A stretch of DNA of 56,536 nucleotides from Girardia tigrina (lineage: Eukaryota): contig MQRK01247627.1 of NCBI GenBank assembly GCA_001938485.1, positions 1 to 56,536 on the forward strand. Direction: 5' to 3'. The position numbers were made by a program, and so were the translations under genes. A model generated the notes under the pieces. That model saw nothing but the letters and a program-made list of their open reading frames with translations. It made no database searches and had not been told where the DNA came from. Shown here piece by piece: positions 17,460 to 43,640 of the stretch; positions within the stretch are counted from its first letter, which is position 1, and each line of letters opens with the position of its first letter.

Positions 17460-19638
17460 TTTCATGTCATTTTGATCCCTACGAGGCTGTACCGCAGCAT
17501 CACGAAGATTAGAAGAGGGGTTGTGGGCCCTGAAAGAAAAATTAAGTAAAAATAAGCCCGAAATTAAAAAATTACCTGTAGGACTATCCATTATAGTTAG
17601 GAGGTCAGCCGACTCTCCACGCGTAGCTCTCAGCGAGACCCACCCCTAGACACCGCCCGCGGAATTACAGCATTCTCCTGCGAAAAGATATACCCCTGCA
17701 AAGATATATAAATTAATAAACAAAAAACAAAGACTAATTAAAAAATTACCGTGACTCAGGCCGCGATCTAAAAATAACCTCGTACGACCTGAATTGACCG
17801 CATGCAGGCTCAGGAAATAATGACGTGGACCGGCACACGAGCTCCAAAATCTATAATAAAAATAAAATTTCAAAAATTTTAAAATTATTTTGGATGCATA
17901 CCTACTTGGCTGTCCAACCAGCAAAGACAAAAACCCAGACAGTCGGCTGATTGGTCAGAATGAGGACGCAGAGTGTCCATCCAGCATTATAAAAGAGACG
18001 ACCCCTTCGTCACTAATTGAACATTTTTAGACATACATTTTGACAAATTATTAATTTGCAAAACACGTTTTCGGCCTATTTCAAAAGAACAATTTAACTC
18101 AAGATAAATTCCGACGAGCAACTTTTACGTACCATTTTGAGTAAACAATTTGGGGAAAGCCATTACCTAGCGAACGACGTGAAAACCAAGAACGACCGAC
18201 TGAGCACAACAAAATTTGAGCGTGATAGAGTCCTAACATTTTTCCGGAGCCGAACCTGATTAATCCGCAATGTAATTTTATTTCTAAATTAGAATTTTTC
18301 CTTTTAATAAAAGTATCGAAATATTATATGATTTATTTTTTCGTTATTGTTGTTTTATTCACTGATTGATCTGAACGCATAAAGCCTAAACTTTATTTTT
18401 ACACTCTAAATATTTCGAAGACCATCGTCGCCGCCGTCCGTCACCCGAATGTCACAGGACATTTTGTTAAACGCTGAACCGCCAGCGCAGGAAAGAGATC
18501 GTGCGATCCCGATGATCGTCCGCGTCTCGTCGATCTCAATTGAGACGTTCGAGGAGGGCAGTTTTGGAGCCTCGGTCCTCAATCGGATCGAACGGCGAAA
18601 TGGCCTCTACCGACCAATCTTCGGGCTATTTCCAGAAACTTTTGTATCGTTTGAGAACGAGTATAAAGGAATTTGAATGAGTACCAACAATGATATTTAC
18701 TTTGAGAATATTAAAACAAATAAATTTATTTTTACGAATTTTACTATTTTTTGTTTATCAAATTAAGTATTTTGTAGGAAAAGCTTGGTAATTTTATTTT
18801 ATGAATTTTTATAAAATTATGGGTTTCATCAATTGAATGAGTTTTATTAGTCTATAAATTTGAGGATAGAGAATTGTTAAACTTATCAAAGAAAGTACGT
18901 TTTGATTTAAAAGTTTTTTATTAAAATTTCTAATTGTGAGTAAAATTTTTAAACATAACTGACAAATTGAAGTGAAGTGAAGTGATTGAAATTAGTTTAT
19001 TTTTTAGACGGTACTAATACGAATCATTATTAAATTAAATGAGGAAAAATTTTAAATGTCCCGTTGAAATACAATATTTTGGTAATTTCAGTAAATCTTG
19101 ATTTGATAGTCGTAATTAGAGCGTTGATTTTCTGAAAACTGATTGTCGGTACTCTGAGAGATAATGATGCTAAACAGCAACAACAGCGCATAACGAAATT
19201 TTAATGAAGCGCATATTCTGCTCTAAATTGACGAACAACAATGCAACAAGTTAATAAAACACAACAAACAGATGCATCAAGTTCACACGCGGACATAACA
19301 TTGCCATAAGTTTCATAGTACACAGTAAACATAATAATAGATGGTAAGGTATCGAGTTATAGTCTAGGAAAAAACATCATCCCCGAGCGACACTTTGCTA
19401 GGTGGGAGACCCATAGCCCGTCCCATCTTTATTAGAACCCGATGGCCCTTCAAACTTGGCACTGCCAGGCAGATGTCGAGCGAGAAGAGGCGTCCGACCC
19501 TTAGACAGAGATAGTAGTTTAAGATGTAATAGAATGAGTTATAAAATGGTATAAACCGAGACTGGGTTGTGGCTGCCCCTTAATAGTCACTGGGGGCTCT
19601 GAGCACTTAAAACTGTTATGGACAAATGGGTCGTGACA
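17460..19638 (+). mobile_element. LTR-like unit 1 (probable solo LTR): antisense exons, CCAAT/TATA promoter, short ORF 18449-18676, structured RNA domain, ends GGGTCGTGACA
   Basis: Minus-strand GT-AG introns 17530-17575, 17696-17749 and 17851-17901; ATTGG ~17950; TATAAAA ~17988; 3' domain homologous to those at 41300, 25540 and 20406. Confidence 0.6.
19377..19599 (+). ncRNA. Conserved structured RNA domain, copy B
   Basis: GCCCTTC/GAAG-A-GGC; CTTGGCA/TGTCGAG; pseudoknot GGGTT-GTGGCT-GCCCC-TTAAT-AGTCAC; closing stem CCCC/GGGG. Confidence 0.7.
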
Positions 19639-20329
19639 CTTTATATCGACGTGATTGTATCAATAATTCAGTCATCGCTCAGAAGGATGAGTGAATCTAG
19701 AATACATACATTTTCTATAATATTGATGAATATTTTATTCTACACACTCACGAAAATAATCGTTCTATTTGCACAAGCATACATTATTTATTCATTCATC
19801 ACACTCAACTTTGGTACCAATGGGTCGGTCGATCGATCAGTTGTTTTGCAAAATTTTTTAAATTCATCATTTTTGGAAAACTTATTGCTTTATTAAATTC
19901 CATTTTTACCTTTATTTTTACTTTTATAATTACATAAATCATTACTTTGCAATTTTTTTCTTACTTTTACAATTAAGTTACATTATTTTATGATTTTACT
20001 TATACATTATTTTATTGATTTATTGAGATGGAAAGTTGCTCAAATCTAAATATTATATCAATTATATTCTTACCTATTCTCATTTATGACTTGACATCTT
20101 TTCTATTCTCTTATTCTTTATTTCTGGGGTTCTATTACTCAGTTGGTTTTATAAATACAATATATTTGCAAATTTTGGGGCTACTTCTACGAGTATCTAC
20201 TTACAAAATTCTATATCATTTTTAACTTGTCAAACTCATCGTACCCATTTTCGTCATTTTCGGGTAAAGTTTTAACCGAACCGTACTAACTTTATCCAGA
20301 GCACAACTCATCCAAAAAGGAAAACATGC

Positions 20330-41166: not shown

Positions 41167-41280
41167 ATTTTAGAGTATAATTTTTATATATTCAACAAAG
41201 ATCTTATTACCATTATTTTACAATTAAATCCTGAATAATTAAACATTAATAATAAAATTATTTACATATATATATATATA

Positions 41281-43640
41281 AACATTTCTGAAAGTTCATG
41301 AGCCCCCAGTGGTTGTTAAGGGTCAACCACGACCCAGTATACCTCTCATTCATTTCAATTTATTTATTTTTTAGGCGGTCGGACGCATCTCCATCGCCTA
41401 ACATCTAGAAAGTAGTGCCAAGTTTGGAGTGCCTTCGGGTTTCTGTAAAGTTAGGAAGAGCTATGGCCCCCATAACTAACTCAGTGCCACTCGAGGTTGA
41501 TTTTATAATTATTACTCTATGTACGCTTGGCTACTGCTCTGTTATGTATCTGTTGACATTATAAGTTACTGACTGATCGTTACCCGTGTATGTTTACTTG
41601 GATACTTGTTGGTGTTCGACTATGTTTGTCGAATCACTCATCAATCATTTCTGGTTATGCACAAGATTATCTACTTTATAACAACCTCCATGGTCGTTTA
41701 CTAATCGTTGAAATTATCCCTAGGATTTCTCATAGATAATTATTTCACCCATAAGGTTCTGAGCGGGTTCAAAATTGTCAGAATAATTATCTACCTGGAA
41801 TAAAAACTAGTTTAAGGTGGTAAAGATTTTATCATTATCACTGGTTTATTTGAGATTATAATTTTTAAGCATAAGATAATCAATTCAAAGTAGATTAATT
41901 CAACTTGTGAGTCAGATTTGGTTATTAATATCACATTGTTTAATTCATTGACGGTTCTAGAATGTCACGTTAATTTTAGTTGACACCTGTACACATATTA
42001 CTACTAAATCAATCATTTCCTTCTGTCACCATATTGACCTGAGATTGGTTCATTTATTATTGATTTATCTAACGACTCTCTATTTCATTATCAATCTACG
42101 TCGCCCTCGTTTATGGATGTCAAACGGAATCGATTTAATGACATTTATCAATGTTCTATCTGTATCTGAAGGGTACCGTTCGGAAGCTCTTTGGGGACTC
42201 GATGCCCGTTCAAATCGGTCCGATTCCATCAATTGAGGAGTACACATTCCGCGGGACGTTTGGTTATTATAATTATTGTAGGATATTTCGATAGTCTCAT
42301 CATTTTAACTGATCTCTGGAAGGCACAAGGAGGGAAGAGGACGACGAAAAGCTCTATTCTATTAAACGAGGATTAATAACTTCATTTAATGAAGTAATTA
42401 TTATTATGAGAAGATAATTGTTATAGAAAATTTTATTAAAATCAGAGACATAAATCAACACAAATTATACTCAATAAACCAGATATTTACATCGTATTAA
42501 TGTTTCTCGGTTGAATGGTACGGTCGGATTTCGGATGATAATTGCGGTAACGAGTTTTCTCTATTAGTCGCTCTCGGTTCGTCAAGTTTCGGATTTCGTT
42601 CTAATTCGGTTTCTCGTATGAATTTATCGTAGGATTTAGCTTCGGTTCGGTTCTCAAATCAGCATTGTAAAATTGTTGCTCCGCGAAAATTTTCTTTTAA
42701 AGGTTCAAATGGTTGTGAAAACTTCTGAAAATTTTTTTGTTCTGTTGTTTTGTTCTTGTTTTTGTTCTGTTTTTTTTTGTTTTGTTCTGATTCCTGCTGG
42801 TCAGGCCGTTGCATATATAGAAGCGTTTTTTCTTGGTGTCGTGTACCTTTCATCGTGGAATCATTGATTGGTTATTACCGTTGATTCTTATTTTTTATTT
42901 GTCGAGACATGTGGTGCATGCGGACTTTGGTAAGTAACAACGATCGCGCTGATTCATGATTATTCATAGTGAATAATCACACGATGTTAATTTCAGGAAT
43001 ATAGTATGATTCACAGTAAGTTTTTAATTAATTTCTTTTATCTTAATTAACTTTTCGTTATATTTCAGGGCTTTATATCTTTTGGTAAGACTCTATTAAG
43101 TCAATGTTTGGTGTTTCTTGGGCCAGCATGAAATTAATGCATGTACGTAAATTCTGCTCATGCAAACCACGAGAAAGAAATTTCTAAGAAAGATCTCTTT
43201 TCCGGTCTCGTGTCATCCATCAATGCCTTCCATGCTTTCACATTTAAAAATTCTGATTCGTGTCCTTTACTTCTATCCATTTAGGTCGATCCCTAAGGAA
43301 AATATCGATGACTCTGGATTGAAGCACCATTATGGATAACAGGCGACAGGAACTTTCTGGAGAGGTCCGGTTGAACGATTTCCTCCGTCAGGTGAACTCT
43401 GACGCAACATTGCGTATTTTAGCTTATTTATGTAACGTTTAGGATCGAAAAATTGCTAATGATGTTTATCTTGGACGTAAGGAGAAATGAAATAATATCT
43501 ACGCGAATCCGGGCTATGTACCATGACTCTCAATCCGGACTTCTTTAAACTTGTGTGATAACTATTTAATATATGTATAATCCCGTAACTGTCTGTGTTT
43601 TATTTCATGTTTCTTAAATGTCAGATTTTCGACTGTAACA
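41281..43640 (-). mobile_element. LTR-like unit 2 (near-complete solo LTR) between (TA)n tracts
   Basis: Starts TGTTACAGTCGAAAATC at 43640; plus-strand intron 43016-43068 followed by GGCTTTATATCTTTT, like the other units' exons; minus-strand CCAAT ~42868 and TATATA ~42817; RNA domain 41300-41500. Confidence 0.65.
41300..41500 (-). ncRNA. Conserved structured RNA domain, copy A
   Basis: GCACTCC/GGAG-A-TGC; CTTGGCA/TGTTAGG; pseudoknot GGGTC-GTGGTT-GACCC-TTAAC-AACCAC; closing stem CCTCG/TGGGG. Confidence 0.7.

Follow-up and report, generated by a model that had tools for sequence, protein, structure and literature searches.

Solo long terminal repeats (LTRs) of animal Ty3/gypsy retrotransposons (Metaviridae) have TG...CA ends with a short inverted match, a 4-bp target-site duplication (TSD) and a TATA box, without a primer-binding site (PBS) or polypurine tract (PPT) beside them (PMC3601003). 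In planarians, Burro/GYPSM1 elements reach a total of over 30 kb around internal regions of up to 25 kb, implying LTRs of several kilobases (PMC6431247), and in flatworms solo LTRs are known to drive spliced RNAs (PMC4558846). Here we describe a 56,536-nucleotide contig, MQRK01247627.1 of assembly GCA_001938485.1 (the window), which contains five LTR-like units. These are probably solo LTRs from several Ty3/gypsy-type retrotransposons only distantly related to one another, and three of them carry, close to the 3' end, a covarying structured RNA (Table 1).

The units resemble Metaviridae solo LTRs in the features listed above and differ from them in several respects. They measure 2-3 kb, against a few hundred base pairs in the modelled clades, and no well-placed AATAAA is found in them: such words, tested with a GT-rich stretch as for an animal Metaviridae LTR, occur at no shared position. 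Their antisense intron chain, internal gene and covarying RNA also lie outside the conserved features set out in the available text of PMC3601003. With Burro/GYPSM1 they share a probable flatworm host and, by implication, multi-kilobase LTRs; the comparison is by description only. Between their LTRs, Burro elements encode a giant polyprotein with gag, PR-RT-RH-IN and extra domains, of which no fragment adjoins any unit among 126 frames of at least 58 codons between 14.5 and 48.5 kb. A predicted spliced antisense RNA from the LTR and an LTR fold of ~200-250 nt recall the LTR of human T-cell leukaemia virus type 1 (HTLV-1; PMC1459196, PMC3434621), again by description and not by sequence; the present units have several predicted introns of ~50 nt contained entirely within the LTR, and conserve no antisense open reading frame (ORF). 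The Ty1 5' pseudoknot, which is required for reverse transcription, likewise lies near the PBS on the genomic strand (PMC3681743), but it extends from the 5' end of the RNA into gag, whereas the predicted pseudoknot and fold described here are self-contained in the LTR end, at a distance of 1.3-2.1 kb from where transcription is predicted to begin. Retrozymes and terminal-repeat retrotransposons in miniature (TRIMs), including the cestode ta-TRIM, are also non-coding LTR-derived units. Theirs is a layout of two short LTRs with PBS and PPT, and this class was set aside: no unit here has two LTRs, a PBS or a PPT, and none has a hammerhead core.

Solo-LTR identity is by itself ordinary. What sets these units apart is the unassigned covarying RNA, together with a gene-bearing LTR layout that is predicted to be two-way. 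LTRs usually diverge past recognition save for a few promoter and end motifs. A fold of ~200 nt kept by compensatory change across unalignable LTRs points to a slowly evolving partner (tRNA, ribosome or 3'-end machinery) or to catalysis, and the RNA would be a probe for long LTRs in flatworm genomes, where such repeats hamper assembly.

Unit 1 splits a TRAF gene

Unit 1 is an integrase-type insertion: it interrupts a TRAF gene at codon 12 and is flanked by a 4-base duplication. In tblastn, the intact TRAF protein P0002 aligns through residues 1-12 to 19675-19640 on one side of the unit, and through residues 12-390 to 17309-16180 on the other. Since the TRAF sequence continues across the unit and four bases are duplicated, both ends are fixed independently of motifs. 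The unit starts with TGTTAC at 17310, not at 17460 as proposed in an earlier model reading of the letters (the sequence-only reading), and closes with GTGACA at 19638. These termini fit the rGmr1 pair TGTNANR...CGTNACA given in PMC3601003, and the unit starts match the 5' LTR integrase motif TGTTRNR of the same source in the first four bases only. The sequence-only reading had seen no clean TSDs; unit 1 carries an exact one, and the flanks of unit 4 match at three of four bases (chance 0.07). With its TG...CA ends and an exact TSD within an interrupted gene, unit 1 supports that reading's proposal of solo LTRs, which now stands firmer than before.

The interrupted TRAF gene (16180-19675, minus strand) is intronless. 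Burro-like elements carry TRAF/MATH ORFs (PMC6431247), so this gene too may have been carried by an element. Antisense RNA predicted from unit 1 would run into the TRAF remnant.

Five units and their shared modules

No PBS or PPT was found beside any of the five units in either orientation, as expected of solo LTRs. A Pfam scan of the same 126 frames yielded no gag or pol inside or adjoining them, in agreement with the earlier statement that none lies within the units. TG...CA termini with a short inverted match are present in units 1 and 4; units 3 and 5 are truncated, and unit 2 is a candidate only. Units 1-4 are multi-copy, with variant contigs and a depth above the single-copy level along their length. 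We consider that the five units are very probably solo LTRs.

Several of the limits first drawn for the units required revision. The TGTTAC starts at 23886 (+), 28575 (-) and 43640 (-) were borne out. At 21970, taken as the start of unit 2, there is no TGTTAC, and the limits given in Table 1 are candidates. GACA ends, part of the shared order first described, are present in units 1 and 4 (two of the five as first delimited) and not in the rest; unit 5, bounded by (TA)n runs, stops short of its end. One run X1 contig has its first base at 28546, 30 nt inward of the TGTTAC end of unit 4. A very high-copy repeat (23055-23885, summed depth about 3 million) ends in TAACA directly before unit 3. The stretch 26600-26800 in unit 4 combines high depth with a (TA)n run and is probably a nested insertion adding to the length of that unit. 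Contigs of run X3, possibly an RNA run, match from 24627 and 25788 onward and are preceded by 116 and 168 unmatched letters; we take them for other alleles or recombinant copies.

The units had been described as one family, which the alignments do not support. Pairwise searches align two modules only, the exon-intron repeat (unit 1 against unit 3, 65% over 213 bp, E-value 6e-19; unit 1 against unit 5, 71% over 77 bp) and the 3' RNA. The unit middles score near shuffled sequence, with a slight excess for unit 1 against units 5 and 4. The starts at 23886 and 43640, said to be alignable, are so only marginally, their score being reached by 24 of 500 shuffles.

A covarying RNA at the 3' end

The RNA copies in units 1, 4 and 5 are 185-216 nt long, 54-70% identical, and end about 40 nt before the LTR end. 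Each has two hairpins, the second of them long and bulged, as well as an AT-rich linker, a predicted H-type pseudoknot and a G-run with which a C-run on the 5' side may pair. Folded on its own, every copy gives the long hairpin as its minimum-energy structure (z -2.2, -1.9, and -1.6), and the second predicted pseudoknot stem covaries. Two-sided change is seen in 9 of 29 base pairs, and 97.7% of 86 cells are paired, a value equalled in none of 500 shuffles and falling to 38-46% in slid registers; these counts come from three sequences from which the structure itself was derived, and whose relatedness alone can beat shuffles. Among the paired cells G-U occurs eight times and A-C never, which places the fold on the strand running toward the GACA end. 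The fold is very probably functional as RNA.

The RNA had been listed as part of the shared order of all units, as far as each is preserved. This holds for units 1, 4, and 5 and is not confirmed for unit 2: the covariance model finds three copies only in the window, and the local alignment of unit 2 to these was equalled by 6, 12, and 62 of 300 shuffles. Rfam 15 ribozyme, internal ribosome entry site (IRES) and cis-element models gave best scores of 8-15 bits, far below gathering scores, and a scan of the whole window brought no match either. Pattern scans returned the RNA from no viral contig and no prokaryote genome, and a phage collection held no match. A set of 105 metagenome loci that fit the pattern was rejected, as none of 80 matched the covariance model and all 105, at 43-71% GC, look like chance.

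Summed contig depth in run X1, which is not a copy number, reaches 158,000-282,000 in the RNA bins, against 190-3,300 in most body bins and 55-220 on the long contigs listed. Values of 23,000-69,000 in the exon bins and in the 3' bin of unit 2 fall between these, and unit 4 contains two further bins of high depth. The contrast fits modules common to many low-copy families. Run X4, from another organism, contributed only 92 partial reads. Among the sequencing runs listed, three contain words of the stretch 17200-20000, with a best share of 0.54 and none of them identified as RNA; the small number is weak evidence against the source being a heavily sequenced model species. No description of such an LTR RNA was found in the literature, although planarian repeat libraries may describe these LTRs; the available portions of PMC8532177, PMC11410931, PMC13238120, PMC4558846, PMC13725137, PMC3434621 and PMC10974842 mention none.

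Predicted antisense introns and a predicted divergent promoter

One intron rule, tuned on these same units, was applied to both strands of their first 900 nt, and gave 12 antisense candidates against no sense candidates in units 1, 3, 4, and 5; the window background is about one per kb-strand. Unit 2 gave one of each. The predicted antisense introns are mostly 46-61 nt long with GT-AG ends, in keeping with the antisense spliced exons of the sequence-only reading. Across the whole window, 8 of 11 candidates with GC-rich flanks fall in units 1, 3, and 4; one of these eight, at 27941, was absent from the introns called by eye. The exons show no codon periodicity, have stops in most frames, and contain no conserved antisense ORF. 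An apparently covarying consensus fold of the antisense exons was not accepted, the single-sequence folds of the three aligned exons being at odds with it (z +0.6 to -0.3).

CCAAT and TATA boxes are found together 600-900 nt into all three units tested (1, 4, and 5), against 8.6% of 2722 background windows, in an interval picked after the units had been seen. The CCAAT noted earlier before the TATA of three units is that of units 1, 4, and 5, and one is visible by eye in unit 2 as well. Judged from these motifs, the region would be a divergent promoter. Antisense promoters are known in several retrotransposons (PMC7264820), and in HTLV-1 the antisense HBZ transcripts enter the element from the LTR (PMC1459196). 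The suggestion that the units carry accessory transcription units of their own holds at the level of sequence, in the antisense intron chains and in a protein-coding gene in unit 2.

A decayed gene in unit 2

By homology, unit 2 holds a protein-coding gene with an intact homologue elsewhere: its frame aligns to P0004, a protein of 143 residues from a metagenome contig, at 34% over 137 residues (E-value 8e-21). P0004 is predicted to form three helices and a basic end (single-sequence model; predicted local distance difference test, pLDDT, 72), and the unit 2 gene belongs with it to a family of predicted helical, basic proteins of ~130 residues. P0004 has no Pfam match at threshold and no PDB relative, and a search for it in viral contigs found nothing. 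A profile built from P0004 and the unit 2 frame retrieved nothing in the other units. The match to P0003 was discarded as one to a low-complexity repeat.

Short sense ORFs, reported earlier for three units, are present in units 1, 4, and 5; they are unlike each other and unlike the unit 2 gene. A peptide match between units 1 and 5 (equalled in none of 5000 shuffles) was attributed to composition, as it falls outside the ORFs in AT-rich DNA.

Table 1. Positions of the five units, their parts and the interrupted gene in the window
Feature	Position	Strand	Details
Decayed intronless TRAF gene, codons ~12-390	16180..17309	-	tblastn of P0002, 68-72% identity; MATH domain
TSD, 4 bp	17306..17309 (left), 19639-19642 (right)		Exact match, chance 0.007
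Unit 1	17310..19638	+	Complete, very probably a solo LTR; 2329 bp, TG...CA, 6/7 terminal inverted match
Antisense exon chain, unit 1	17530..17901	-	Predicted introns 17851-17901, 17696-17749, 17530-17575
Reversed CCAAT box 17950 and TATA 17988, unit 1	17950..17994	+	Predicted divergent promoter
Sense ORF, unit 1	18449..18676	+	75 codons; no homologue found
Structured RNA, unit 1	19381..19596	+	Long bulged hairpin 19440-19496, predicted pseudoknot 19564-19590
TRAF gene, first 12 codons, far side of unit 1	19640..19675	-	8/12 residues as in P0002
Unit 2	20228..22290	-	Candidate LTR-like unit; limits uncertain, no TSD; CCAAT 21928, TATA 21884
Decayed gene, unit 2	20870..21253	-	One frame, matching P0004 over 21253-20876; in-frame stops 21208 and 21010
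Unit 3	23886..24626	+	5' fragment; antisense intron-exon units of ~170 bp, three to four in tandem
Unit 4	25502..28575	-	Complete LTR-like unit, 3074 bp, TG...CA; TATA 27898, CCAAT 27978
Structured RNA, unit 4	25543..25727	-	Covariance model, consensus fold
Predicted antisense introns, unit 4	28044-28097, 28177-28229, 28294-28354
Unit 5	41281..43640	-	LTR-like, last ~22 nt missing; CCAAT 42871, TATA 42819
Structured RNA, unit 5	41303..41496	-	Alignments to unit 1: 71% (128 bp), 78% (58 bp)
Predicted antisense intron, unit 5	43016-43068

Possible roles of the fold

In the account we favour, with a probability of roughly 0.55, the units are solo LTRs of several distant Ty3/gypsy-type retrotransposons, and the 3' fold places the primer tRNA and tags the genomic RNA for packaging. 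The internal regions would have been lost through recombination between LTRs. A divergent CCAAT/TATA promoter 680-820 nt into the LTR would give rise to a sense RNA with a 1.5-2.4-kb leader, including an accessory gene in unit 2, and to a spliced antisense RNA that, when started in the 3' LTR, would read into the element in the manner of HTLV-1 HBZ. The fold would lie just 5' of the would-be PBS and act like the Ty1 5' pseudoknot. An AACCC in the RNA is invariant and unpaired, and could presumably pair with the T-arm of a tRNA, like a primer-activation signal. Because of this possible pairing and the Ty1 analogy, a priming or packaging role is the one favoured for the fold; we propose it tentatively, at odds clearly below even.

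A number of observations weigh against this account. Paired LTRs, a PBS and gag-pol were not seen, and loose contig ends at LTR termini were absent among the matches listed. An exact TSD is found in one of five units, being absent or not assessable in units 2, 3, and 5. The gene is established in unit 2, yet the RNA only in units 1, 4, and 5, and packaging signals lie mostly 3' of the PBS. As for the fold itself, folding of the whole region is weak in units 4 (z -0.4) and 5 (z -1.0), the first predicted pseudoknot stem forms in unit 4 only with the register shifted by 1 nt, and the G-run could close on any of several partners; the limits on the covariation counts and on summed depth given above apply here too.

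In the same solo LTRs, the fold could instead be an IRES, allowing gag-pol to be translated downstream of a long leader and an accessory gene. The predicted leaders of 1508-2366 nt contain 25-33 AUGs, the unit 2 gene lies downstream of its TATA, and a fold of ~200 nt with a terminal predicted pseudoknot would suit this role, as would the IRES activity of gypsy and VL30 5' untranslated regions (PMC10974842). No Rfam IRES matched at E-values up to 10, and the leader could be spliced instead, with sense intron candidates at the background rate; we regard an IRES as nearly as probable as the priming role. A 3'-end or export element like the HTLV-1 Rex response element, in which long-range pairing would bring the poly(A) signal beside a cleavage site near the LTR end, would match the fold in size and LTR location (255 nt for the Rex response element; PMC3434621). 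The C-run/G-run closure is kept in all three copies, each with hexamer-like words upstream and a TGTT stretch after. However, the closing helix shows no two-sided change, the hexamers differ and stand 56, 50, and 10 nt upstream, which is too far in two of three, and the repeat region R would need 1.5-2.3 kb; this explanation is unlikely.

Still less probable is that the fold represents a self-cleaving ribozyme so far unrecognised, comparable to the hammerheads borne by the LTRs of plant retrozymes. A link between ribozymes and retrotransposons is known (PMC13725137), and the invariant unpaired bases, bulged adenines and predicted pseudoknot of the fold are of the kind expected, but it is larger than known small ribozymes, and neither an Rfam ribozyme match nor a hammerhead core was found in any unit. 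We give as little credence to the units being complete non-autonomous elements (Ginger-like DNA transposons or single-unit retroelements), or to the RNA being a separate high-copy module resembling a short interspersed element. Ginger DNA transposons have long terminal inverted repeats and a DDE integrase gene; the terminal inverted match here is only ~7 bp and no rve match lies inside the units, which speaks against this candidate. Ginger 1 ends do also begin TGTNR (PMC3601003), no internal region was seen, and depth is about 50-1000 times higher in the RNA bins than in most body bins. Against a separate module, the RNA of units 1 and 4 has the same orientation and an equal distance from the end, without a poly(A) tail or TSD of its own.

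It is tempting to speculate, beyond the favoured account of solo LTRs with a priming fold, on a flatworm retrotransposon lineage that combines complex-retrovirus-like LTRs, an accessory gene of its own, an antisense unit with multiple introns, and a structured RNA of a new class (IRES or ribozyme) common to many unalignable families. We would not expect this to be the case on present odds; if it were true, thousands of solo LTRs would be self-contained two-way gene cassettes.

The surrounding window

The window is an AT-rich animal repeat mosaic. An intronless frame of 322 codons (33857-34825, minus strand) encodes an IFT22/RabL5-like GTPase, whose nearest named homologue is a protein of the flatworm Macrostomum (50%). 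The stretch after the GTPase part resembles, we presume, the N-terminus of APC11/RBX and is followed by further unrelated sequence; the whole looks like a chimeric retrocopy. Two other intronless host-like fragments are an acidic ORF (35134-36270, minus strand) and a CYRI-family piece (39001-39411, minus strand). A GC-richer frame of 265 codons (38118-38915, plus strand) has no Pfam match, and its nearest Atlas cluster, a weak match (0.75), is eukaryotic.

Remains of mobile elements include hAT and mariner transposase pieces (2125-3306, plus strand, and 11449-12154, minus strand), and an element with long terminal inverted repeats at 6394-8495, inside which a second such element is nested at 6611-7572. 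A decayed integrase fragment (37221-37724, plus strand) adjoins no unit. The ORF at 44682-45668 (plus strand) is without a Pfam match and presumably resembles the tail of a non-LTR endonuclease. A tandem array of 15-bp units occupies 51423-51630.

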